Shown here in pieces: positions 7,221 through 32,000 of a stretch of DNA of 32,000 nt. The position numbers and the translations under genes are program-made. Numbering within the stretch: position 1 is the first letter of the stretch; every line of letters begins with the position of its first letter. The stretch comes from Acaryochloris marina MBIC11017 (lineage in GTDB: Bacteria > Cyanobacteriota > Cyanobacteriia > Thermosynechococcales > Thermosynechococcaceae). The notes beneath the pieces are model-generated. The model was given only the letters and a program-made list of their open reading frames with translations, had not been told where the DNA came from and made no database searches. Location of the stretch: assembly GCF_000018105.1 (NCBI RefSeq), contig NC_009925.1, forward strand, positions 2,430,001 to 2,462,000, given 5' to 3'.

Positions 7221-8570
7221 CTAGGGCTTAGGAACAGATGGCATCGGTACCGTTGGAGCGATATTAGACTCCGAAGGAGGCGCTGTTGGTGCATCCGGCA
7301 CGGCAGGAGTGGTCGGTACTGATGGCTGGGGAACAGACGGTAACGGCACGGTTGGTGCAACAGAAGGATCCGATGGTGCTCCAGCCGGAGCAGGCGATGC
7401 ACCAGTTGATGCATCTGCTTTCACACAGTTGAGGGTACGCAAGGTGGCTGCTGCCGCATAATTACGCTGAGCCGATTGATTGGGCGTAAAGGCCAAACCC
7501 TTTTCATTCAAGGGAGAGGCCACACCACAATAGCTGGACATTTCGGTAATCACAGCAGATGCCCAGTGACCACTGGTATCGGTGAAATTGAGAGCCGGTT
7601 GCTTCTCAGCCAGTTGAGTCTCCAGTCCTCCCAAAGATTTGGCATACAGGGCCGCTTTCTTAAGCACTGCCATCATTTCTGCTCGAGTGACTTTACGAGT
7701 GGGCTGGAAGGTTCCATCCGGATAGCCTTTAACAATATCGTTTTGCTGGGCAAAGGCAATTTTAGCTGCACTCCAACGACTGGCCGCCACATCTGGGTAG
7801 GGATTACCGCTGGCTTGGCTGGGAACCGTAAAGTTCACACCAGGGATATTCTTCAGAGACTCCAGAATCATGGAAACCAATTGCTCACGGGTCAAAGACT
7901 CTAACGGACGGAAGGTATTATCTTCAAACCCAGCAATAAATTTGAGGGCAACCGCCTGGCTGATGTCTTTGAGGTAAATGTCATTTTCAACATCTGGGAA
8001 CGGTACCGCGCTAATCCCTTTAGAGAGATAAACATGACCTAACGTTTTCTTCTTAAAGCTTCGTTTCGTGAGTCGCCATTCAGGATCGAGAATAATTTTG
8101 GCAAATCCAGGCGTTTTACCATTAGTGCGACCCAATTCAATATCCTGATCTCCCCCTGCCTTGGAGTCAGGAATCCCCATCAAAACCATATCTGTATCCG
8201 TTTTCCGAATTTGGACGAGATAACGTCCGCCCAAATCTTCACCGTCCACGCGAATTGAGTAGCCATTTTGATCCACACTGCGGCCACACAAACCGGTGAA
8301 GTCAAAGTTCAGTAAGAGGGGGTCGATGATAACCGGATTGCTGCCACTTTCACTCCAGCATTCTTTTTCAGAGGAAATTTGTTCCAGGATCAAGAGTTGG
8401 TGAATATTGCCATTGCCGATCGGGGCTGCTACCAACACAAACTTAGACTGATCGATTTCTCTCTCACTAAAGGTAGCGGCTCGGGCTTCTGGAACTGTGG
8501 CCCCTACTGCAAACGTGGCAGAGGCCGCAAAAGCGAGTAATTGAACAATGGGGCGTAATGATAATTTCAT
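7221..8570 (-). CDS. Secreted DUF3747-like / S-layer-homology (SLH) domain envelope protein with a Pro-rich tail
   Basis: I prefer the start at Met 23 of the track ORF (cat at 8568-8570), which gives the signal peptide MKLSLRPIVQLLAFAASATFAVGATVPEARA. SLH-type repeats are present (FPDVENDIYLKDISQAVALKFIAGFEDNTFRP; YPDVAASRWSAAKIAFAQQNDIVKGYPDGTFQP; FTDTSGHWASAVITEM). The C-terminus is proline-rich. Confidence 0.85.
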   Translation of the reverse strand: MKLSLRPIVQLLAFAASATFAVGATVPEARAATFSEREIDQSKFVLVAAPIGNGNIHQLLILEQISSEKECWSESGSNPVIIDPLLLNFDFTGLCGRSVDQNGYSIRVDGEDLGGRYLVQIRKTDTDMVLMGIPDSKAGGDQDIELGRTNGKTPGFAKIILDPEWRLTKRSFKKKTLGHVYLSKGISAVPFPDVENDIYLKDISQAVALKFIAGFEDNTFRPLESLTREQLVSMILESLKNIPGVNFTVPSQASGNPYPDVAASRWSAAKIAFAQQNDIVKGYPDGTFQPTRKVTRAEMMAVLKKAALYAKSLGGLETQLAEKQPALNFTDTSGHWASAVITEMSSYCGVASPLNEKGLAFTPNQSAQRNYAAAATLRTLNCVKADASTGASPAPAGAPSDPSVAPTVPLPSVPQPSVPTTPAVPDAPTAPPSESNIAPTVPMPSVPKP

Positions 8571-8725
8571 GGGTTTGGCTCTACAACGTGATGGTGAATT
8601 ATGTTGAGCGATATGGATCAGCCCTTGTGACGACAAGCATCATCTGGCTTGTTCCAGGGGTTCGTTTTAAGTCGAGAGTGTATCACGCCAAACCGTTTAT
8701 TTTTCTTTATCCTCCCAAAATATAA

Positions 8726-12712: not shown

Positions 12713-12793
12713 GGACTTTAATCCTCCAGGTTCAGAATGGGGCGATGCGATCGCTACATTAACTAATGTTAACCCATTCTTTCAGAGGTGGGG

Positions 12794-14032
12794 CTAGCTG
12801 CTGGTAATTACGCTGTTTTCTGGATTCACCAAACGCAAGAGCTTCTGCTTAATTTGGGTATCGTAGACGCTCCACTTCAGCTTGGCGTAATCCGAGTTCT
12901 CATTCAGCCCCGATAAAAAGCCCATAGGAATTTCAAATCCACCCGCCAGGGAGCGGCCACCGCCAAAAAATCGGCCCTGAGTATCTTGACCAAAGGCTTC
13001 TTTAATAAATTCATCAGGGTCCAGAGTTAGCTTCGTTGTGCGCAAGGACCCGACCACCAATTCCAGATCTTCATCTTCATCATGGACAATGCCATACACT
13101 ACGGCTGTATGCACATTATCTTCGGTGACCAAAAAATCTGCCGCTTGAGGGATGGCATCGCGGTTGTCATAGCGGAGAAAACCGACACCAGCAATCGTCA
13201 CGTTGTTGTAGACGCTGCGATTTTTGAGAGCGCTCTCAATCACATCCATGACCTGCTTCGACCGAGAAGATTGCAGCACCGTATTCAGGAGCTGACTATC
13301 GTAGAAGCGGCTTAAGTAGGCCGCTGCCAGAAAATCTTCTTCTTGGGCTTGCTTGAGAAAGTTGGTGTCAGACCGCAGGCCATGCATGAGCGCCGTTGCA
13401 CAATTCACATGTTCACTGACATTGCTATCAAACTCTAGCAAACCGGTCCGGAGATACTGGGTCAGAATCGTCGCTGTCGCCCGAGTATTGGGCCGTACAT
13501 CTGTAAATTCAGCTTCCACGCCTTCTTGCAAACTGTGGTGATCGATAACGACGGTGATCGGAATATCCGCCGCCTGTAAAATCGGTAATAATTGGCTGGT
13601 CGTGCCCTGATTATCAATCAAGACACAGCCCTGGTAAGCTGATAAATCTTTTCCTTTGGTTTTTGGAGACTGACAAGCCCATCGTTGCACGGGCAGATTG
13701 GTCAGTTTCACTAGGGCAATATTTTCTTGATGGCTCAGGGTGCCAGCGTAGAGAATTTCGCATTGAATATCATACTGCTCTGCAATCAGCTTGTAGGCCC
13801 AAGCAGAAGACAAAGCATCTGGATCAGGAAAGTCTTGCAAAATCACAAGTTGCGAATCGCCGCGATGACTTTCGAGCACCTTAGCAAAGGCGTCAGCACG
13901 CTGTTCCTGGGCTCGCCCATTCAGACTCGTGAGATTACTAGAAGATCGAGCACCCAGTTTTTCAGACGAGTTGAGATTGGCTGAACGAGTCTCTAATTTA
14001 GGGTCAACTGACTTCAAAGAAGTTGAAACCAT
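12794..14032 (-). CDS. DHH-family phosphoesterase (NrnA-like)
   Basis: DPDALSSAWA, VVIDHH and GGGRSLAGGF (DHHA1-type GGGH-like) motifs occur in the canonical order. There is a Ser-rich N-terminal extension, so the start is uncertain. Confidence 0.75.
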   Translation of the reverse strand: MVSTSLKSVDPKLETRSANLNSSEKLGARSSSNLTSLNGRAQEQRADAFAKVLESHRGDSQLVILQDFPDPDALSSAWAYKLIAEQYDIQCEILYAGTLSHQENIALVKLTNLPVQRWACQSPKTKGKDLSAYQGCVLIDNQGTTSQLLPILQAADIPITVVIDHHSLQEGVEAEFTDVRPNTRATATILTQYLRTGLLEFDSNVSEHVNCATALMHGLRSDTNFLKQAQEEDFLAAAYLSRFYDSQLLNTVLQSSRSKQVMDVIESALKNRSVYNNVTIAGVGFLRYDNRDAIPQAADFLVTEDNVHTAVVYGIVHDEDEDLELVVGSLRTTKLTLDPDEFIKEAFGQDTQGRFFGGGRSLAGGFEIPMGFLSGLNENSDYAKLKWSVYDTQIKQKLLRLVNPENSVITSS

Positions 14033-14310
14033 AGTAAAAACCTAATGTTAGGTAGGAGTAATATTCAGATGGAACATAGACACGGACAGAACCGCTTGAT
14101 TTAAGGCAAAGCAGATTCTGAAGATTATCACGAATCGCTGGGATTGGGATCGGTGCTAGCTATCCCGCAGGCGCTTACTCCACTATTCCCCTACAATTAT
14201 TTTCTTTGATCCTAATTGAAAATACCAGCCCCTTGATGTGAGGATACCCCTAAAGTTATGGGGAAGAATACTCGTCTTTATGCGTTTAAGGCAGAGTAAA
14301 AAGCAACAAA

Positions 14311-14808
14311 TTACATACCAATGACATATTTACGCCATTCTTGATGAACCCCATTTCGTAGATGCTTAGTGACCTCAAAGTACAAGCTACTGTAAGGACG
14401 ACGCGGCGTTTGTTTCAGGATCATCCGGGCTTCTTTGGGCGTCCGATTGCCTTTCTTGACGTTACAGCGGACACAGGCCGTCACCATATTTTCCCAGGTA
14501 TCTCCCCCTCCTCGTGATCGGGGCATCACATGATCTAGGGTTAAATCATCGCCAGCATGTCCGCAATATTGACATGTATGGCTATCGCGATGTAGTAGGT
14601 TTCGGCGAGTTAAGGGAATTTCTTTGTAAGGCACCCGCACATATTGGCGCAATCGAATGACCGTCGGCAAGGGAAAGTCTCGATACACAAACTTACCGTT
14701 GTGTTCTACTTGCTCAGCTTTTTCTTTGAGGACTAAAACAACCGCTCGACGCCAACTGGTGATATTAAGCGGCTCATAGGAGGCATTCAGAACGAGAACT
14801 TTGCCCAT
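14311..14808 (-). CDS. Small HNH endonuclease-family protein (conserved cyanobacterial type)
   Basis: CQYCGHAGDDLTLDHVMPRSRGGGDTWENMVTACVRCNVKKGNRTP is a complete HNH/zinc-finger motif. I prefer the start at MGKVLVLNASYEPL (cat 14806-14808) over the 37-codon upstream extension in the track. Confidence 0.85.
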   Translation of the reverse strand: MGKVLVLNASYEPLNITSWRRAVVLVLKEKAEQVEHNGKFVYRDFPLPTVIRLRQYVRVPYKEIPLTRRNLLHRDSHTCQYCGHAGDDLTLDHVMPRSRGGGDTWENMVTACVRCNVKKGNRTPKEARMILKQTPRRPYSSLYFEVTKHLRNGVHQEWRKYVIGM

Positions 14809-15300
14809 GAATCCTTGCCCAGGCAGATCTGATACAGATAGTAGCACATACCCCATGAAACCTATGATTGGGCAATACTTAGGCCCATTTACTGGGGGCT
14901 GACGGTAAATACCCCCCAAACGTTACGGTTGTCCCAACGACAGTCTGTAGAGGTGCTGCTTATAGTGATGAATGTATGGATTCAGCAAACCAAGTCCTGG
15001 AAATCGTTAGGGTTACCCCCTGACGATTTACGACTGACGGCTCCCCCTGGTGCTGCCCTACTGCAAAGTCATTTGATGACCGCTTGGTAATCCCCACAGC
15101 ACTAAAACCGTCTACACCAGGTTCGGTAAATACGCCTTCAAGATCTGGCTAGGAAAGCCAAGTATAGAGGTAAGTTAACCCTCCCACGGCGCTTGTTATT
15201 AGTACAAATGAACTACTACTTCGTCTATGGGTGTTCTAGAACCCGGTCAGTGACCTGTTTGCTTAACAGACAATTTTTTAGAAGGAGCTTGTAAAAACCT

Positions 15301-17208
15301 ATGGCAAAAGTTGTTGGAATAGATTTAGGAACCACTAACTCTTGCGTAGCAGTGATGGAAGGGGGCAAACCCACGGTCATTGCCAATGCAGAAGGATTCC
15401 GGACAACCCCCTCCGTTGTCGCTTATGCCAAAAATGGTGATCGCTTGGTCGGTCAAATTGCCAAGCGCCAATCGGTCATGAACCCTGAGAATACGTTCTA
15501 CTCAGTGAAGCGATTCATTGGCCGCCGTCAAGACGAAGTCACCCATGAAACGACTGAAGTCTCCTATCAAGTCCTCACTGAAGGGGGCAGCATTAAAGTG
15601 GACTGCCCTGCAGCAGGCAAAAAGTTTGCCCCTGAAGAGATTTCAGCTCAGGTACTCCGCAAATTAGTCGATGATGCCAGTAAATATCTCGGCGAAAAAG
15701 TCACTCAGGCGGTAATTACCGTTCCCGCCTATTTCAACGATTCCCAACGCCAAGCCACAAAGGATGCCGGCAAGATTGCCGGTGTGGAAGTCCTGCGGAT
15801 TATCAACGAGCCCACCGCTGCTTCGCTCGCCTACGGTTTAGATAAAAAAAGCAACGAAACCATTTTGGTATTTGACTTGGGGGGAGGAACCTTCGACGTC
15901 TCCGTACTTGAAGTGGGTGACGGTGTGTTTGAAGTACTCTCCACTTCGGGTGATACCCACTTGGGCGGGGATGACTTCGACAAGCAGATTGTGGATTACT
16001 TGGCAGCCGAGTTCCAGAAAGCCGAAGGGATTGATCTACGCAAAGACAAGCAAGCCCTACAGCGTCTGACTGAAGCAGCAGAAAAAGCCAAAATTGAGCT
16101 TTCCAATGTCACCCAAGCGGATGTCAACCTTCCCTTTATCACAGCGACTCAAGATGGTCCTAAGCATTTAGACACCACCCTTACTCGCGCTAAGTTTGAA
16201 GAGCTCTGTTCTGATTTGATCGATCGCTGTCGGATTCCCGTTGAGAATGCCGTCCGTGACGCCAAAATCGATAAGAGCGCTCTTGATGAAGTGGTGATGG
16301 TTGGGGGTTCCACCCGCATTCCCGCGATTTTAGAAGTCGTTAAGAAAGTCCTCGGTAAAGAACCCAACCAATCCGTTAACCCTGATGAAGTGGTTGCCGT
16401 CGGTGCTGCCATTCAAGGGGGTGTGCTGGCCGGTGAAGTTAAAGATATTCTCTTACTAGACGTCACACCGCTATCCTTGGGAGTTGAAACCCTTGGTGGT
16501 GTGATGACCAAGCTGATTCCCAGAAACACCACGATTCCCACCAAGAAATCAGAAGTGTTCTCAACGGCGGTGGATGGCCAAACCAATGTGGAGATTCATG
16601 TACTCCAGGGTGAGCGGGAAATGTCTACAGACAACAAGAGTCTGGGAACCTTCCGCTTAGACGGCATTCCTCCCGCACCGCGAGGCGTGCCTCAAATTGA
16701 AGTCACCTTTGATATTGATGCCAACGGTATTCTCAATGTCACTGCTAAAGAAAAAGGCACTGGCAAAGAACAATCCATTAGCATTACGGGGGCTTCCACC
16801 CTGTCCGATGCTGAAGTCGACAAGATGGTTCAAGATGCAGAGCAAAATGCCTCTGTAGACAAAGAACGTCGCGAGAAGATCGAGACCAAGAACCAGGCCG
16901 ATACGCTGGTGTACCAATCCGAGAAGCAGTTGTCTGAATTAGGCGATAAGGTTTCCGGTGAGGATAAAGAGAAGGCTGAAGGTCTGATCAAAGATCTGAA
17001 AGAAGCTATCGCCAGTGAAAACCATGAGCAAATGCAGTCTCTAACCACTGAGTTGCAGCAAACCCTATACAGCATCAGCACACAGCTATATCAGCAAGGT
17101 GATGCCGCTGCTGCAGGGGCACCCGAAGGGGCTACTCCAGATGAGCCCAGTGATACCGCTGGTGGCGACGATGATGTCATCGATGCTGATTTCACTGAAA
17201 CGAACTAG
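15301..17208 (+). CDS. dnaK: Molecular chaperone DnaK (Hsp70)
   Basis: [23 protein letters not shown] and [10 protein letters not shown] signatures are present, with an acidic C-terminal tail. AAGGAG (15282-15287) lies upstream of the ATG. Confidence 0.98.
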
Positions 17209-17278
17209 AGTTCGCGATCTATCGACTCTAGCGAACCGATAGATCCGTCTTAAGACTTAGGTTTCTATTACTCCTTCT

Positions 17279-17313
17279 AAACTCTGCTCTTAATCAAAGA
17301 GCAGAGTTTTTTT
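17279..17313 (+). terminator. Rho-independent terminator of dnaK
   Basis: An 11-bp stem, actctgctctt (17281-17291) paired with aagagcagagt (17297-17307), encloses a 5-nt loop. It is followed by a T run through 17313. Confidence 0.85.
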
Positions 17314-17639
17314 CATGAGTGAAACCTGGGGCCTTTTGCAGACGTAATCCAGAGACAAATTGTATTGCAGCTCATCCGCTAGTTATGCAGATGCTAGCAA
17401 TGAGGTCCCCGCTGGCAAATGCGCGACATCAAAGGCCAGGTCAATAGTGATGGGTTATGAAATTCACTACAGTTGCGCGATCGCAATCACCGCATCCAGC
17501 CCATAGATGGCTTCCAATAAGACATAGATAGCTTTTAGGCAATGCACAAAACCAGGTACATTCTCGGCCGCAAGGTTGTAGGGAAGAAGTCGGCGTTTCG
17601 CCTAGCCAAGCTGTCTACTGATGATGTGGAGCAGGTCGA

Positions 17640-25492: not shown

Positions 25493-25710
25493 TCCTCAAA
25501 AGTTACAGTGTGCAAGGAAATAGCTATAAGTAGTCAGGTTCCATATCAAGCTGCACAGACAAAGCTCTCTCTTTCTTGAGATAATTATCCAAGTCTTTGC
25601 TGTCAAAGATACTGGTTACCATTTCGAATTACAACTCACCACAAAGATGTTTGTAGTTCGTCTCATCTAATATTTTGGCATACCTAATCATTATCTTTTA
25701 AATATAAATC

Positions 25711-26157
25711 ATGAAAAGAAAGCCCAAATTTAAGTTATATTACTCAAGCTTTATTCCCGTTTATAGAAGCAACTGCATATTGCTAATTACTTGCATGATT
25801 GGTAGTTCTCTGTTGTCAGGTAATATATCCGTTATCTCAATTCTAAACTTGATAGCAGGAGCAATGATTATTTCACTTTTTATGACACAGATTTCAATTT
25901 TATGCTTTCCAGTTGGGATTAATTCTATAGGTATTCGATCTTCCACTTATCAAATGTTTCACTGGCATCATACTATTGCCTGGCATGACATTCAGCAGGT
26001 TAAATCACAAAATATAATAGGGTTACGGCACTTGATTGCATCCGATTCTAAAAATCATCAAATCTATGTACCATTATACTTATCTAAACAGCGACAATTC
26101 GAACAAGAACTAAAAGATCTTTCCGGAGATTCAAATCCTTTAGCTAAAGCTCTTTGA
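25711..26157 (+). CDS. Small membrane protein with a possible bacterial PH-like (YdbS/bPH2-type) C-terminal domain
   Basis: Two N-terminal hydrophobic helices are followed by IGIRSSTYQMFHWHHTIAWHDIQQVKSQNIIGLRHLIASDSKNHQIYVPLYL, which resembles the bPH2 pattern. It lies in an AT-rich, HIP1-free patch. Confidence 0.45.
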   Translation: MKRKPKFKLYYSSFIPVYRSNCILLITCMIGSSLLSGNISVISILNLIAGAMIISLFMTQISILCFPVGINSIGIRSSTYQMFHWHHTIAWHDIQQVKSQNIIGLRHLIASDSKNHQIYVPLYLSKQRQFEQELKDLSGDSNPLAKAL

Positions 26158-26313
26158 TAGATTTAATGCATTTATGAAAAATTAATTTTTAACAGAGATT
26201 ATTTCGGTGAAATAAATGCTTTTATCAATTCATTTTTTTAGTCTTTTCTTAGTGACATCGATTCTTGCAGCTTTTATGAATTGTCAAATTGTTGCTAGTC
26301 AGTTTCCCTCATA

Positions 26314-27306
26314 ATGCCGCTTCAAATCCAAGCTCTGCTGCTAGCCATCACCACGATTTACCAAATCATTGTTTGCCTAATCGAAAACCGAACCTCACCG
26401 CCAGGGCAGCGCATTGATATCGGTAGCTATACCCTGCATCTCCAAACAATGGGTACGGGGCAGCAGACCATTGTGTTAGACCACAGCTTAGGGGGCCTGG
26501 AAGGCTATCTATTATTAAACAAGCTGGCCCCTCTAGGCCGAATCTATATCTATGATCGAGCGGGATATGGATGGAGCGATCATAGCCCTTACCCCAGAAC
26601 CAGCGATCAAGTGGTTAAGGAATTAGACCTGCTATTAACCCACGCCAAAGCCGAACCGCCCTATCTTTTAGTAGGAGATTCCTTTGGCAGCTACAACATG
26701 CGACTCTATGCCCATCGTTTTCCCGCAAAAGTGTCGGGATTAGTGCTAACCGATGGCCTTCATGAGCGCGCCATGCTGAACATGCCGTTGCAGCTCAAGG
26801 CCCTGAAGCTCTTCTTTATCTCCGGTTTTTTGATGTCAATTGTGGGGTCAGCCTTTGGCATTATTCGCTTGTTGCGGCTTTGCCAAGTGTTTAAGCTAGT
26901 GAAGCCAGCGTTGAGAAAGTATCCTCCAGCAGAGCTAATGCACGTTACCCGTTCCTTTTGTCGTCCCAAGCATTGGATTACCATGTGTCGAGAGCTGTGG
27001 AATTTAGACCAAAGTGGACGCCAGCTCCGAGTAGCGGAGAACTTAGGCACTTTGCCCCTCGCCAGCATCAAGTCCCAGTCCTTTTTCAAACCGTCGCTGC
27101 TAACGAGGCTGACGCCGCTGCGGAGTGCCAACCGCTTACGAGATAAAATCCATATCGATTTGATGCAGCTTTCTTCTGTGAGTAAACAGTTTCCCGCTAG
27201 CAATAGCAGTCATTTTGTGTGGGTAGATGAGCCAGAGGTAATGGTAGCGGCGGTGAAGTGGGTGCTAGCAAATCAGTCTAAAAATTCAAAGGAGCATGAT
27301 GACTGA
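26314..27306 (+). CDS. Alpha/beta-fold hydrolase with an N-terminal hydrophobic anchor
   Basis: HSLGG is an oxyanion-hole-type motif. The nucleophile elbow is GDSFG (G-x-S-x-G). A SSHFVWVDEP region supplies a C-terminal His. Confidence 0.8.
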   Translation: MPLQIQALLLAITTIYQIIVCLIENRTSPPGQRIDIGSYTLHLQTMGTGQQTIVLDHSLGGLEGYLLLNKLAPLGRIYIYDRAGYGWSDHSPYPRTSDQVVKELDLLLTHAKAEPPYLLVGDSFGSYNMRLYAHRFPAKVSGLVLTDGLHERAMLNMPLQLKALKLFFISGFLMSIVGSAFGIIRLLRLCQVFKLVKPALRKYPPAELMHVTRSFCRPKHWITMCRELWNLDQSGRQLRVAENLGTLPLASIKSQSFFKPSLLTRLTPLRSANRLRDKIHIDLMQLSSVSKQFPASNSSHFVWVDEPEVMVAAVKWVLANQSKNSKEHDD

Positions 27307-27880
27307 ACTTGCCCCTTGGAGATCGGCATTGAGTCGCGCCCTGCATCGGAATCGGTCATTGGTTTATGCCCGCTATGCCCAGTTGGCGACGGTACAGGCA
27401 AATCGTCCTGCCAATCGCACGGTGGTGTTTCGCGGTTTTTTAGAGGACAGCAATACGCTAAAGTTTGTGACGGATCGGCGCAGCAAAAAGATCGAGCAAA
27501 TTGCGAAGAATCCTTGGGGGGCATTATGTTGGTATTTCCCGAAAACCCGTGAGCAGTTTCGGATTTCTGGGGAATTGATGGTGGTGTCGGCCACAGAGGA
27601 GGATTCCGATCTTCTCCATTTGCGTGAGGTGGCTTGGTTAGCGTTATCAGAAGGGGCGCGATCGCAATTCGCATGGCCCCATCCAGGACAACCTAAAAGC
27701 GAGTCTGAAGCATCATCACAGGAAGCGATTGATCGCACAACTCCCTTGGAAGCATTTTGCTTGCTATTACTGGCCCCCCAAGAAGTCGATCATCTAGAAC
27801 TCAAAGGACAGCCTCATCAGCGATGTGGTTATACCTTAGAAGCCAACGATACTTGGAAACAACAAGTGCTGAATCCTTAA
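27296..27880 (+). CDS. PPOX-class FMN-dependent flavoprotein (pyridoxamine 5'-phosphate oxidase-related, Npun_F5749-type)
   Basis: WRSALSRALHRNRSLVYARYAQLATVQANRPANRTVVFRGF...CWYFPKTREQFRISG is typical of this family. It overlaps the hydrolase gene by 11 nt, which suggests an operon. Confidence 0.8.
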   Translation: MMTELAPWRSALSRALHRNRSLVYARYAQLATVQANRPANRTVVFRGFLEDSNTLKFVTDRRSKKIEQIAKNPWGALCWYFPKTREQFRISGELMVVSATEEDSDLLHLREVAWLALSEGARSQFAWPHPGQPKSESEASSQEAIDRTTPLEAFCLLLLAPQEVDHLELKGQPHQRCGYTLEANDTWKQQVLNP

Positions 27881-28608
27881 GCGGATACTGCAGCATGTCT
27901 TAAAACTTCCAGCACTTGAGTTGGGTCACAACCATAGATTCCAGCCCCCCAGGCTGCGTTTTGTTCGACCACTGCCCAACTGCGATCGCAAATCACACCC
28001 ACATCCACCACAGCTGCTTGGGGCAGGTCAATCGTCTCATCCGCTAAAATCTCGCCAACAAATTCAACCAGAGCTGCTTCTTCCTCAGGAGAATGGGCAA
28101 AGTGATTATCCCGCTGCAACACTCCCTCGTGGAGGTACACTGAGAAAGTTTTCAACGTCCGATTCAGAATAAAACAGCGAAATTCCTTTTCCCACTGCAC
28201 AATCTCAGAGATCAAAACGGGGGTTTCATCAGGGTATCCATTCGGTAGTTCAGACCCTGTATACACCCGCGCAGGGAAACTTTTATCATTTGGTGGTTTG
28301 ATAAAAGCAGCCGTCTCGATTTGCCTAGCCTGCTCCAAAGTACTCAAACGAATCGAACGCTGGCGATATGGCTCTGGTAGTTTTGGCAACCAGTCGATGG
28401 GTGGCTCTAGCAGACGGCGTTGAAATTGCTCAGCCAGAAGTGGCGCCATCAAAGCCTCCAAATAGAACACAGGCTCTTCAACTTCCAGCAGATGCGCAGG
28501 TACATCCCAACAAGTAATTCGCTCCACATCCCAACCCAGTTCAATCGCAGCACGCCATAAAGCTTGGGCATCGTCTGTATAGCGGGGTGTCAGCAGGAGT
28601 GTTGGCAT
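27877..28608 (-). CDS. Small stand-alone ATP-grasp domain protein (DUF4343 / R2K-clade-like)
   Basis: The N-terminus MPTLLLTPRYTDDAQALWRAAIELGWDVERI and the C-terminal VVDVGVICDRSWAVVEQNAAWGAGIYGCDP and EFRCFIL motifs match proteins I recall annotated as DUF4343 ATP-grasp. An HMM search is needed to confirm. Confidence 0.7.
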   Translation of the reverse strand: MPTLLLTPRYTDDAQALWRAAIELGWDVERITCWDVPAHLLEVEEPVFYLEALMAPLLAEQFQRRLLEPPIDWLPKLPEPYRQRSIRLSTLEQARQIETAAFIKPPNDKSFPARVYTGSELPNGYPDETPVLISEIVQWEKEFRCFILNRTLKTFSVYLHEGVLQRDNHFAHSPEEEAALVEFVGEILADETIDLPQAAVVDVGVICDRSWAVVEQNAAWGAGIYGCDPTQVLEVLRHAAVSA

Positions 28609-28667
28609 TAGAAGCTATCACGCAGTTCACACAAATCGTAGCGTGCAAAGTTATATCCAGCAGTCAT
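28608..28667 (-). CDS. Candidate 19-codon micro-ORF (MTAGYNFARYDLCELRDSF) translationally coupled to the ATP-grasp gene
   Basis: The ATG is at 28667-28665. The TAA stop at 28610-28608 shares base 28608 with the ATP-grasp ATG (TAATG). In the reconstructed pre-IS sequence, its ATG likewise overlaps the stop of the 106-aa gene (TAATG). I have no homology evidence. Confidence 0.3.
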   Translation of the reverse strand: MTAGYNFARYDLCELRDSF

Positions 28668-28674
28668 TAATCTT
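28667..28674. repeat. Target-site duplication, left copy (TTAATCTT)
   Basis: Identical 8-mer directly abutting both IS ends. An 8-bp duplication is the ISL3-family norm. Confidence 0.9.
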
Positions 28675-30059
28675 GGCTCTCCGGGAATTAGCGTGGTAGC
28701 CGCTAGATATAGTGTTTAGGTCACAGCGAATGTCTGATACCCATTGAGGTCAAGAGAAATCCTTTGGAAGAGTCTTTCAATATCGAAAATACCGTAGCAT
28801 CGTCTTTTTAAGACTTTGACTCGGTTATTAAATCCTTCCACAAAACCACTGGTCCACCCCTCCAGGAAATAGTTGGTCATCTCGTCCATCCAATTATTGA
28901 TAGTGGTCAGAAAACAATCGAATTCCTTGATGTCACTCTTGAGTACTTGTTTACACCAAGCACGGATGGCACATTTAGCTCCGTGCTTGGTGTACCTGCC
29001 CTCAAATATCTGCGTGAGTTTCTCTCGGAGGTTGTACGCCTGTTTCAGTTGTGGAGAATAAGCAAACAATCGCTCAAGGAGTTGTTGCTCTGACTCTTTC
29101 AGATTCTCTGGTCGTTTTCTAAAAGGCCACATCGCGCCTTTGATGCTGTCATACTCTTGCTTAGAGAGCTCTCGTCGTAGACGTTTGACCTCACGTTTAC
29201 GAACCGTATCAGCACAATTACGATAGGCTTTGGTCACATGAAAGCGGTCAATGACAATTTTGGCTTGCGGCAATTGTTCTCGGACTGCACTGACAAATCC
29301 TTGGTACATGTCCGTACAGACGCGCTCAATGGTTTGGCGTAAATCAATGGGAATCGATTGAAGGAAATTTGCCACTGTCTGCTGTTTACGGTCGGCTAGA
29401 ACTGCCAATATATCCACCCCATCCGTCGTAGGAATCGTGATCAAAACCACAAAATCACGATGGCCTCGTTTGAGAGAAATCTCATCCATCCCCATAACTT
29501 TGAGGTCTGCATATTCGCTCCAGTCAACTTGAGCGGCAATCCAACGATCAATGATTCCACTGACGATATCCTCACTAACGCCTAGTTTTCTGGCAACATC
29601 TGAGACCGTTGAATTGATCAAGATTCGCAGAAGCCAACGCTCATATGCTTTTGTATTGGGACTGCGAGGTTCGTGCCATTCTAAATGTTGAGTTGTTGTG
29701 GGATGGTCATCGCAATACTTGCATCGATAACGCTTGGGCCGAATTTCTAAGTAAACGGGGACTTCAAATAATGGCAGGTGACGAATCCGAAAAGGCTGAT
29801 CATGACAATGGAGGTCAGTAATCTCACGTCCGCATTGATGACAGGTTGTTCCTTGAAGCGTACTCTCAATCTTGATGAGCCAATCCCCTCTCTCAGTCTT
29901 CGATAGCTCTAGAACTCGAATATCAGGAAGGTTGAGCGGGATGCGAATTGAGTTATCCATTACGCCATTGCTCTGAAGTACTACCTCAGATCATTCCATA
30001 GGGATGAAAAAGGAAACACACTAAATGTAGGACTGCTACACGCTAATTCCCAGAGAGCC
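28675..30059 (-). mobile_element. Intact ISL3-family insertion sequence (1385 bp)
   Basis: The left terminal inverted repeat begins at 28675 (ggctctccgggaattagcgtggtagc). The reverse complement of the right end, finishing at 30059, is ggctctctgggaattagcgtgtagc. They differ by 1 mismatch and 1 indel over about 26 bp. The GGCTCT termini are typical of ISL3. It carries a single full-length transposase ORF, is flanked by a perfect 8-bp duplication, and has no HIP1 site inside. Confidence 0.92.
28716..29960 (-). CDS. ISL3-family transposase
   Basis: N-terminal zinc-finger region (CHQCG...RYRCKYC), an HTH region (STVSDVARKLGVSEDIV), and a DDE domain (GMDEISLKRGHRDFVVLIT...DMYQGF...NNRVKVLKRRCYG). 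Confidence 0.93.
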   Translation of the reverse strand: MDNSIRIPLNLPDIRVLELSKTERGDWLIKIESTLQGTTCHQCGREITDLHCHDQPFRIRHLPLFEVPVYLEIRPKRYRCKYCDDHPTTTQHLEWHEPRSPNTKAYERWLLRILINSTVSDVARKLGVSEDIVSGIIDRWIAAQVDWSEYADLKVMGMDEISLKRGHRDFVVLITIPTTDGVDILAVLADRKQQTVANFLQSIPIDLRQTIERVCTDMYQGFVSAVREQLPQAKIVIDRFHVTKAYRNCADTVRKREVKRLRRELSKQEYDSIKGAMWPFRKRPENLKESEQQLLERLFAYSPQLKQAYNLREKLTQIFEGRYTKHGAKCAIRAWCKQVLKSDIKEFDCFLTTINNWMDEMTNYFLEGWTSGFVEGFNNRVKVLKRRCYGIFDIERLFQRISLDLNGYQTFAVT

Positions 30060-30067
30060 TTAATCTT
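30060..30067. repeat. Target-site duplication, right copy (TTAATCTT)
   Basis: Identical to 28667-28674. It contains the stop codon (tta = TAA on the minus strand) of the 106-aa ORF. Confidence 0.9.
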
Positions 30068-30380
30068 TCAGCTTCGCTTGGTAGCGTTGGGTTGTCCACA
30101 ACTCACTATCCCAAAATTCTTCCACCGTGAGCTGTTGATCCGTCCCTCGCTTAATGGCCCAATGATAGTGACGAATGGGTTTGCTGCTGTCATCAAAACC
30201 AATACGAACACAACGACCCACTAGCTGCCACGCACAACAAGCCACAAAATATTCCCTGGCATGTTTTGACGTGGGCTCTGGCAGAGATTCATTAAACAGC
30301 TGATTGAAAGTGCGAACAAATTTCGTTGCCCGTTGTTCAATAGACATTAACGGAAATAAAATGAGTGAGAATAACTTCAA
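30060..30380 (-). CDS. Hypothetical protein (95-106 aa)
   Basis: The track ORF starts at a TTG. The first ATG (cat 30345-30347) would give MSIEQRATKFVRTFNQLF..., 95 aa. I recognise no family. It is on the same strand as, and 71 nt downstream of, the 202-aa gene. Confidence 0.55.
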   Translation of the reverse strand: MKLFSLILFPLMSIEQRATKFVRTFNQLFNESLPEPTSKHAREYFVACCAWQLVGRCVRIGFDDSSKPIRHYHWAIKRGTDQQLTVEEFWDSELWTTQRYQAKLKD

Positions 30381-30451
30381 ATGTCTATGTCGTAAGTCTT
30401 TGAGGTCGATTTTCCTCCAAAAATAAAATGCTTTCCCAGTAAGGCTTTCAG

Positions 30452-31060
30452 CTATTTCCGATAAGGTCTAATTAACGGGTCTACTTGCCAACGATACTCA
30501 GATTCTTCAGGATTATAGGCACTACCCGGTGGAAGGAAAGCATATAAGACAACTGATTCACGGCAGGCTGCCAGCACGACTGGGTCTTTTGACAACGCAG
30601 CAAGTGCCACTAAGGAATAGTCATTGGACTCAATCGCAACATGAAATGTTTCAGCCGTTAAGTTGGCAATCGTCCAGGCCGGAAAGCTTTGCTCCATCGC
30701 GATGGATAATGCATCTTTACCGGTAGGCAATAAATAGCGTTGGTCCGCTGGAGTTCCAAATATGAGTGACCCAGTCACCTGTTTTAGACGTTGGAAACTC
30801 TTTACATCAGAAACGTCCGCTTCCCTTTCCCGTGGGACATTTTGCAGCGTCTGGACTAATTGAAAATACCGAGTCAGTTCTGGCGATTCTGTATAGTACC
30901 CCTCAACTGGAACATTGCCAGGTGCAAGAGACAATACCGAGGCCACCTCTTCTGCACACTGGAGTAGCTCAGTACGCTCATGGCATTTCATCGCCTCGCG
31001 GTAGAGTTCATCTAAACCCAGCACAAAGACTCGGTTAGTCACAATTCGTTGTTCTGGCAT
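30452..31060 (-). CDS. Hypothetical protein (202 aa)
   Basis: Clean ATG-initiated ORF with no TM helix or signal peptide and no recognisable motif. It is the first gene of the minus-strand cluster that ends in the ATP-grasp gene. Confidence 0.6.
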   Translation of the reverse strand: MPEQRIVTNRVFVLGLDELYREAMKCHERTELLQCAEEVASVLSLAPGNVPVEGYYTESPELTRYFQLVQTLQNVPREREADVSDVKSFQRLKQVTGSLIFGTPADQRYLLPTGKDALSIAMEQSFPAWTIANLTAETFHVAIESNDYSLVALAALSKDPVVLAACRESVVLYAFLPPGSAYNPEESEYRWQVDPLIRPYRK

Positions 31061-31311
31061 GGACTCGCGGTAAGGTTACAGCGCTGTTGACAGAGCAGAT
31101 TATTCAGCTCAGGTTCTCAATCAAAAAACAGCATATTCTCTTATTTTCCCCATTCTGATCAGGTTATCGGACACCTCTAACCCTATTAGGCGGATATAGC
31201 TCTTCTAACAGTATTAATAGGTTTCTAGTGAGCTTGATCTGACGAATCACTAGATCATGAGTAAAGATAGAAAGAGTCAACTCACACCGCTCCCAACCAA
31301 GGAAAACGATA

Positions 31312-32000
31312 GTGGCCGAACAGATAGACATCCTGGCGAGTTACGTCCCAGATATTGTCGTGCGTCGGTTACTCCAAGATCCGACTCCCATCGCTAAGCC
31401 CCAAATCGATCGTTTTCCTGCCGCCGTTATTTTTATCGATATCTCGGGATTTACCATCCTTACTGAAACCCTGGTGAAATCTGGACCGGATGGTTTAGAA
31501 ACCCTGACCGCCATTTTGAACGCCTACTTTGGCCAGATCGTGGATTTGATTTTGAAGTATGGCGGTGACGTCCTCAAATTCGCAGGAGACGCACTCCTAG
31601 CAGTTTGGCCCGTCCAGGAAGCTGACAAGACTCTCCAACAGCAAACGCTCCAAGCCTGCCAATGCGCCCTCGTTATTCAACAGTTTTCCCAGTCCTATAC
31701 TGCGACGAGTGATGTATCCTTAGCCTTACGGATTGGCATTGGGGCAGGTGATGTTGCGATCGCACATGTGGGCGGCGTCTATAAACGTTGGGAACACGCG
31801 ATCACAGGTGCCCCCTTAGGACAAATTCGCTTAACCCAAAGTTTGGCCCAACCCGGACAAGTCATCCTCTCGTCTGAAGTCATTACCTTAATTCAGTATC
31901 AAAGTATCGGCGCTACTATAGACAGCGGTTGCTGGCATCTAACTGCGTTATCAAAAGTAGATCCACCCCCAAAGACCAGCCCTAAAGAACTGACTATTGA
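31312..32000 (+). CDS. Class III adenylate/guanylate cyclase-domain protein, N-terminal part (runs off the window)
   Basis: My own translation from GTG 31312, the first start codon after the in-frame stop at 31258-31260, reads VAEQIDILASYVPDIVVRRLLQDPTPIAKPQIDRFPAAVIFIDISGFTILTE...YGGDVLKFAGDALLAVWP...LRIGIGAGDVAIAHVGG...WEHAITGAPLGQI. This contains the metal-binding FxDISGFT and KFxGDA motifs of cyclase homology domains. It is not in the ORF track because it is open at the window end. Confidence 0.8.
   Translation, partial: MAEQIDILASYVPDIVVRRLLQDPTPIAKPQIDRFPAAVIFIDISGFTILTETLVKSGPDGLETLTAILNAYFGQIVDLILKYGGDVLKFAGDALLAVWPVQEADKTLQQQTLQACQCALVIQQFSQSYTATSDVSLALRIGIGAGDVAIAHVGGVYKRWEHAITGAPLGQIRLTQSLAQPGQVILSSEVITLIQYQSIGATIDSGCWHLTALSKVDPPPKTSPKELTI

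Follow-up and report, generated by a model that had tools for sequence, protein, structure and literature searches.

Four minus-strand open reading frames (ORFs) lie head to tail in a 32,000-nt stretch of the Acaryochloris marina MBIC11017 chromosome (hereafter the window, in whose coordinates positions are given unless another contig is named), and they raise the question of whether they form one functional unit. The original prediction read them as four coupled cistrons, comprising two orphan proteins, a 19-codon micro-ORF and an R2K/DUF4343-like ATP-grasp, and proposed that together they make up a peptide- or protein-modification module interrupted by an insertion sequence (IS). Minus-strand ORFs are indeed present at 31060-30452 (202 amino acids, aa), 30380-30060 (106 aa, from a TTG start) and 28608-27877 (243 aa), and the 19-codon ORF is visible at 28667-28608. 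The count of four cistrons is nevertheless wrong, since a single gene, interrupted by a 131-bp insertion, accounts for both the 202-aa and the 106-aa ORF. Our analysis very probably resolves the cluster into a conserved gene, here named p290, that has been split by a miniature inverted-repeat transposable element (MITE), a recent insertion of ISAcma10, a mini-ORF that arose by chance, and an intact R2K.2 ATP-grasp, all within a variable islet.

One gene broken in two

Alignment shows that a single conserved gene of about 290 aa has been divided into the 202-aa and 106-aa ORFs, and the claim of two orphan proteins falls with this result. Homologues of the 202-aa ORF are almost all 288–303 aa in length and cover 95–98% of the query (the A. 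marina protein P0121 is 100% identical to it), and the 106-aa ORF has only a few matches, which are the C-terminal regions of those proteins. The segment 30060..30341 on the minus strand, corresponding to p290 codons 197–289 plus the stop, aligns to the C-terminal third of the intact 290–303-aa homologues P0122, P0124 and P0134, and homologues of 290–303 aa cover the whole of the N-terminal part (codons 1–196, 30473..31060, minus strand). In other Acaryochloris strains (P0122, P0124) the protein continues unbroken across the split point as ...QVDPLIEQRATKF..., and comparison with the orthologues of strains S15 and CCMEE 5410 places a 131-bp insertion (30342-30472) in the window between QVDPLI and EQRATKF. 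Removal of these 131 bp in silico gives a 289-codon p290 ORF with no other lesion. After p290 codon 196 the 202-aa ORF runs for six codons into the inserted element and then stops, and the 106-aa ORF likewise takes its first 13 codons, including the TTG start, from the insertion.

The core of the inserted element is 128 bp long (30342..30469, strand not assigned). It is bounded by 17-nt imperfect terminal inverted repeats (TIRs), AGACCTTATCGGAAATA and TATTTCCGTTAATGTCT, and is flanked by a 3-bp ATT duplication at 30339-30341 and 30470-30472. Plasmid pREC2 of A. marina MBIC10699 carries another copy, 95.7% identical, which shares these ends and is likewise flanked by ATT. The element is thus short, lacks coding capacity, has TIRs and a target duplication in both copies, and occurs more than once, as is characteristic of a MITE. 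The pREC2 copy (L149 1501-1638) lies upstream of yidD. Because the MITE insertion after codon 196 causes a frameshift and a stop, p290 now reads as a "202-aa" and a "106-aa" ORF, and in MBIC11017 it is in all likelihood a fresh pseudogene.

A profile search of 1.8 billion representatives recovered 401 p290 clusters at 50% identity, almost all of about 290 aa, and the alignment contains many invariant polar residues. No model in Pfam, NCBIfam, PADLOC or PHROGs matches p290, and a profile search of Protein Data Bank (PDB) sequences returned only noise. The AlphaFold2 (AF2) model of p290, made from L001 6001-6873, has a predicted local distance difference test (pLDDT) score of 86.5 and a predicted template modelling (pTM) score of 0.87. 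Foldseek found no neighbour of this model in the PDB or BFVD, the best matches having E values of 0.4–0.5 and template modelling (TM) scores of about 0.12–0.15. The modelled fold may therefore be new. No copy of p290 was found in a scan of viral contigs or in a scan of plasmids. We also see rare homologues with an N-terminal FHA domain, an N-terminal segment resembling the C-terminal domain (CTD) of ribosomal protein L7/L12, or a C-terminal partial T2SSE match (proteins P0288, P0191/P0194 and P0250). We rejected these fusions as a clue to function, as they are too few and are carried on short contigs on which gene-call artefacts are possible. The interest of p290 as a lead is that it is a conserved and confidently modelled family without a family model or structural neighbour.

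A recent ISAcma10 insertion and a probable chance mini-ORF

The IS between the p290 fragments and the ATP-grasp occupies 28675..30059 on the minus strand. Its 21-nt inverted repeats lie at 28675-28695 and 30039-30059, and 8 bp of target sequence are duplicated on either side of it (28667-28674 and 30060-30067). In this the reconstruction given in the original prediction was correct. Its transposase (28716-29960), which has a zinc ribbon and a helix-turn-helix (HTH) domain, matches DDE_Tnp_ISL3 at 5e-75 and NF033550 at 5e-101, so that transposase, repeats and duplication together identify an ISL3-family element. Copies annotated as ISAcma10, 99.9–100% identical, are present on plasmids of A. 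marina MBIC10699, and due to this near-identity the insertion can be regarded as recent. The element inserted exactly at the stop codon of p290, and 58 nt separate it from the start of the ATP-grasp downstream. When the IS is excised in silico, the TAATG overlaps described earlier are reproduced, one joining the stop of the 106-aa ORF to the ATG of the micro-ORF and the other joining the micro-ORF stop to the ATP-grasp ATG.

The 19-codon ORF itself (28608..28667, minus strand) is very likely a chance product of the spacer sequence and not a gene. In the intact locus of S15, p290 and the ATP-grasp are separated by a 55-nt spacer that is homologous to that of the window, but this spacer lacks an ATG, and an in-frame TAG takes the place of the window's TAC. 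In CCMEE 5410 the region preceding the ATP-grasp bears no relation to that of the window, and among about 70 loci with enough upstream sequence we found neither a similar peptide nor any consistently coupled small ORF. Since these 6 kb contain as many as 91 ORFs that reach 20 aa or more, the presence of the 19-codon ORF carries no weight. A conserved precursor-peptide gene beside the ligase, as in systems for ribosomally synthesised and post-translationally modified peptides (RiPPs), is not seen here, given the missing ATG and the TAG in S15 and the lack of any homologue of the micro-ORF.

The R2K.2 ATP-grasp

The assignment of the 243-aa protein (27877..28608, minus strand) to the R2K/DUF4343 group is borne out by matches to PF18299 (5e-35) and PF14243 (2e-19). 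The R2K_2 model (PF18299) scores 120.9 bits against a cut-off of 26.2 and is covered over positions 1–147 of 147, with R2K_3 scoring 70.9 bits. The protein is a bona fide member of R2K.2, an already described family. Burroughs, Zhang and Aravind (2015) presented members of this family as sporadic, as carried by phages on occasion, and as possible conflict enzymes that modify proteins, and Acaryochloris sp. is among the species abbreviations of their Figure 1 alignment (PMC4431377). The same work defines the R2K clade by a lysine in strand 2, a second Lys or Arg in the loop and the absence of a Gly-rich loop motif (PMC4431377).

All of these features are found. K104 and K109, in FIKPPNDKSFPA, are invariant in 24 sequences. 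In the AF2 model (pLDDT 93.6) K104 lies at the end of RAGNYA strand 2 (101-104) and K109 in the loop downstream, which has neither a GxG motif nor the ssxGbGl motif. The ATP-grasp catalytic set is also complete, with R144 (in EFRCF), D202 and E215-Q-N217 invariant in 24 orthologues and positioned on modelled strands at 139-148, 198-206 and 211-217. R144 thus belongs to the first kinase-like strand and the acidic D202 to the fourth, and E215-Q-N217 is the terminal ExN motif. A profile search of PDB sequences gave only noise for this protein. Foldseek returned 240 PDB matches at E ≤ 1e-3, and the top matches listed all have the ATP-grasp fold (LysX, ArgX, Ddl, RimK). In line with the original prediction, which named no biochemical function for the bacterial stand-alone forms, none for the R2K clade was found in the searchable literature, nor was any biochemical study of R2K.2.

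Among Acaryochloris orthologues the ratio of nonsynonymous to synonymous substitution rates (dN/dS) is 0.06–0.15. These values indicate that the ATP-grasp is intact and under purifying selection, whatever lies upstream of it. Identity between cyanobacterial and planctomycete copies is 63–65%.

Gene neighbourhoods across phyla

For p290 we compiled 52 loci from a scan of one genome per species, with flanks of up to 8 kb on each side. These loci come from about ten phyla, including Planctomycetota, Gemmatimonadota, Chloroflexota, Verrucomicrobiota, Acidobacteriota, Bacteroidota, Cyanobacteria and Proteobacteria. For the ATP-grasp, a metagenome scan, five direct look-ups and one viral contig provided 85 non-redundant loci at 49–85% identity. 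No ATP-grasp of this type was found near p290 in any of the 52 p290 loci, and p290 was absent from all 79 ATP-grasp loci outside Acaryochloris; among the 85, it occurs only in the Acaryochloris contig L064. Clustering of all flanking ORFs at the 52 loci revealed no conserved neighbour of p290, and no conserved neighbour of the ATP-grasp emerged from the 85. The genes immediately beside the ATP-grasp in Hyella (170 aa), L065 (161 aa) and Fimbriiglobus (134 aa) show no relationship with one another or with p290. Ser/Thr kinases, the only family to recur around p290 (at 6 loci), were considered as partners and set aside: they occur at 6–7 loci for each gene, are abundant in those phyla and have no fixed position.

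Co-localisation in independent lineages, the mark of a conserved module, is thus not observed, and adjacency is confined to Acaryochloris. The original prediction had asked whether orthologues of these genes co-localise in IS-free genomes, and had agreed to be judged by the answer. Within the genus they do, p290 and the ATP-grasp being side by side in the IS-free S15 genome, but we found no co-localisation outside it. Because of the 0/52 and 0/79 counts and the lack of a conserved neighbour, the prediction fails by its own measure outside one genus.

A variable islet with separate gene histories

The locus is, with high confidence, a strain-variable islet of the A. marina chromosome, bounded by a cyclase-AAA-TPR gene on one side and a PPOX flavoprotein gene on the other. 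We are similarly confident about its content, namely two independent and sporadically distributed genes (p290 and the ATP-grasp) and two mobile-element insertions. The divergent gene that begins at 31312 (31312..32000, plus strand) does encode a cyclase domain (Guanylate_cyc, 5e-13), as had been noted, and its 1350-aa syntenic counterpart is found in L001, L003, L064 and L065. The other conserved flank is a convergent PPOX-type flavoprotein gene (27296..27880, plus strand; TIGR04026 at 2.6e-86, PF12766 at 1.9e-32). The 3′ ends of the ATP-grasp and PPOX genes overlap by 4 bp (27877-27880), an arrangement shared with CCMEE 5410 and L065 and not found in S15 or outside the genus.

Between these flanks the gene content differs among Acaryochloris lineages, in agreement with the earlier view of the region as accessory and variable. 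S15 (L001) has p290, the 55-nt spacer and the ATP-grasp, followed by a 735-aa ORF. In CCMEE 5410 (L003), p290 and the ATP-grasp are kept apart by a 1.5-kb insert of low GC (guanine plus cytosine) content that carries a 232-aa ORF (L003 6913-8402); in L064 the same place is taken by a pair of ORFs, of 320 and 130 aa (L064 6546-9226). In L065, an Acaryochloris-like lineage, the ATP-grasp is present at the same site without p290. The islet ORFs of the other Acaryochloris strains gave no significant Pfam match (one sub-threshold match to DUF4363) and no PADLOC match. Different DNA has thus entered the short p290–ATP-grasp spacer in independent events, namely ISAcma10 in the window (28609-30059), the cassette in CCMEE 5410 and the two ORFs in L064, and the spacer looks like an insertion hotspot.

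Sequence comparison also indicates that p290 and the ATP-grasp have different histories. Relative to CCMEE 5410, synonymous divergence (dS) is 0.09 for the ATP-grasp and 0.45 for p290, a contrast pointing to an event within the islet in which one of these genes recombined or was replaced. Outside Acaryochloris, the ATP-grasp has its closest relatives in other cyanobacteria (74% and 69% identity), at loci that are rich in HIP1 sites; p290 copies in cyanobacterial metagenome-assembled genomes (MAGs; 56% and 51%) are no closer than planctomycete copies.

The window as a whole contains 15 HIP1 sites in 32 kb. The original prediction had pointed to a HIP1-free stretch at the locus, and there is indeed no site between 27989 and 31756, but this is not exceptional. 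A second HIP1-free gap of 4.7 kb lies at 12754-17477, and 1.4 kb of the 27989-31756 gap is taken up by the IS; on these grounds we rejected HIP1 depletion as a sign of foreign origin. A scan of the locus for promoters and terminators gave a site count not above that of shuffled sequence. Elsewhere in the window, a low-GC patch at 25500-26400 (GC 0.33, compared to about 0.48–0.50 around it) holds a 148-aa ORF without a Pfam match (25711-26157), between a ThiD-like kinase gene and an alpha/beta hydrolase gene. At this position S15 has no called gene and CCMEE 5410 has a 264-aa ORF, and the patch may be another small variable insertion.

Discussion

Judged by its family membership and modelled fold, the ATP-grasp is most likely a stand-alone ATP-dependent carboxylate-amine ligase. 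On this model it would act alone, activating a carboxylate as an acyl-phosphate and then joining an amino acid or amine to it. The chemistry is modelled on LysX, ArgX and RimK, the closest solved folds, which act on protein C-termini. Given the 63–65% identity across phyla and the absence of a dedicated neighbour gene, the enzyme probably acts on a conserved component of the cell, protein or metabolite, that is encoded elsewhere.

The ATP-grasp could alternatively be a conflict or defence effector that modifies phage or host proteins during infection, with the islet as a defence island. We consider this rather unlikely, and the evidence for a defence role is weak. A role of this kind was proposed for R2K.2 by Burroughs et al. 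(PMC4431377), and the family is sporadic as such an effector might be, yet 63–65% cross-phylum identity and a dN/dS near 0.1 would be unusual for arms-race genes. The protein matches phrog_7313 (8e-18), one IMG/VR contig has a 49%-identical copy, and there are relatives in mycobacteriophage Myrna (gp254) and in a Pseudomonas jumbo phage, but these phage relatives are distant, at only 28–30% identity. The gene is located in a hypervariable islet of ORFans, but PADLOC returned no match for the ATP-grasp, for p290 or for ten islet neighbours, and no defence genes recur as neighbours in the 85 loci. In the IMG/VR contig (L148, 174.7 kb, putative viral) the ATP-grasp copy is at 8001-8696, within a densely packed same-strand gene array. 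A scan of plasmids found only distant actinobacterial relatives of the ATP-grasp.

Several points weigh against our own account of two independent genes, one of them a ligase with its target elsewhere. At least four Acaryochloris lineages have kept the two genes at a single site, and the same-strand adjacency of these genes, with a spacer as short as that of S15, is unlikely to result from random placement; a lineage-specific functional link, or co-transfer, is possible. About a third of the comparison contigs are short, so that a flank of at least 1.5 kb is present upstream in 41 and downstream in 39 of the ATP-grasp loci, and in about 40 of the p290 loci. Finally, what we say of the ligase chemistry and of the kind of target is deduced solely from the fold and the family to which the protein belongs. 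That the adjacency in Acaryochloris reflects a real lineage-specific partnership, in which p290 is the target or regulator of the ligase, nevertheless seems distinctly unlikely. If true, such a partnership would be the first handle on an R2K.2 substrate.

The original prediction went further, in that p290, whether one protein or two, would be co-transcribed with the micro-ORF and the ATP-grasp as a modification module, with the short peptide or p290 as substrate or partner of the ligase and the IS as a recent interruption only. This is very unlikely, and the model is largely refuted. The TAATG overlaps that appear on excision of the IS are what tight coupling would produce, but the micro-ORF that they depend on is interrupted by a stop and lacks a start codon in S15, and it does not occur elsewhere. 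Both p290 and the ATP-grasp combine a sporadic distribution with strong conservation between phyla, as members of one module could be, but they do not occur together at any of the 52 p290 loci or the 79 ATP-grasp loci outside Acaryochloris. Within Acaryochloris they are same-strand neighbours in four lineages, including S15 where the spacer is short and free of the IS, but L065 keeps the ATP-grasp at the same site without p290, and dS is discordant between the two genes. The ATP-grasp is moreover under purifying selection even though unrelated DNA separates it from p290 in three lineages and p290 is a pseudogene here. With no co-localisation beyond the genus, a micro-ORF that is not conserved and two orphans that are one gene, a head-to-tail coupled peptide- or protein-modification module is not supported.

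The idea that the split p290 still works, its 202-aa N-terminal and TTG-started C-terminal fragments reassembling, deserves hardly any credence: an in-frame TTG supplied by the MITE does give the 106-aa ORF, and the break is near a low-confidence loop (172-183) between a helical N-terminal part and an alpha/beta C-terminal one, but its position at residue 196, past strand 188-191 and where helix 195-212 begins, puts it within the C-terminal part and outside the loop, no split version is among the full-length homologues listed, a scan of the locus found no Shine-Dalgarno or promoter evidence, and the otherwise undamaged state of both halves is equally expected if the insertion is very recent.

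A MITE-split p290 beside an intact ATP-grasp with its own history is therefore the reading that we retain. The finding is mainly a correction, in which a tidy-looking orphan operon turns out to be the debris of two mobile-element insertions beside an already described enzyme family, and it spares follow-up work on a peptide substrate that does not exist. The R2K.2 orthologue group is itself a lead, as its strictly stand-alone genes, about 65% identical between cyanobacteria and planctomycetes, argue for a conserved cellular target and not for a neighbouring substrate.

Comparison with known systems

The locus resembles RiPP systems with ATP-grasp enzymes, such as the microviridin and graspetide macrocyclases, in having a short ORF directly upstream of an ATP-grasp gene, and it was this arrangement that gave rise to the idea of a peptide substrate. 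The likeness goes no further, as the short ORF is not conserved even within the species, the ATP-grasp model matches macrocyclase folds only weakly (AMdnB, TM 0.39; 7mgv, TM 0.47), and the enzyme is of the R2K type, which is different from the MdnB/MdnC type.

The best structural neighbours are the C-terminal amino-acid ligases LysX (3vpd, E 4e-9, TM 0.64), ArgX (3vpb) and RimK (5zct, 7qys), with which the ATP-grasp shares its catalytic residues. Sequence identity to these enzymes is 10–15% and the R2K-specific lysine arrangement differs, so we do not claim membership of their family. There is also no LysW-like carrier, S6 context, or lysine or arginine biosynthesis gene near the ATP-grasp. 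CDC123 (R2K.1), an assembly factor for eIF2, belongs to the same R2K clade (PMC4431377) but represents another family; no CDC123 structure is among the top 50 Foldseek PDB matches listed, and no eIF2-like partner is evident.

The 128-bp element shares with Acaryochloris MITEs its TIRs, 3-bp duplication, non-coding nature and possession of a second copy, and the IS agrees with the ISL3-family element ISAcma10 in transposase domains, inverted repeats and 8-bp duplication, with identical copies elsewhere.

The closest correspondence for the ATP-grasp is the R2K.2 family itself. Some R2K.2 genes have operonic links to R2K.3, GNAT and ADP-ribosylglycohydrolase genes (PMC4431377), which are absent here. 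Otherwise we see no essential difference, as the protein has the same full-length R2K_2 match, the K104/K109 pair, a loop that is not Gly-rich, the R144/D202/E215-x-N217 set, and the same stand-alone and sporadic occurrence.

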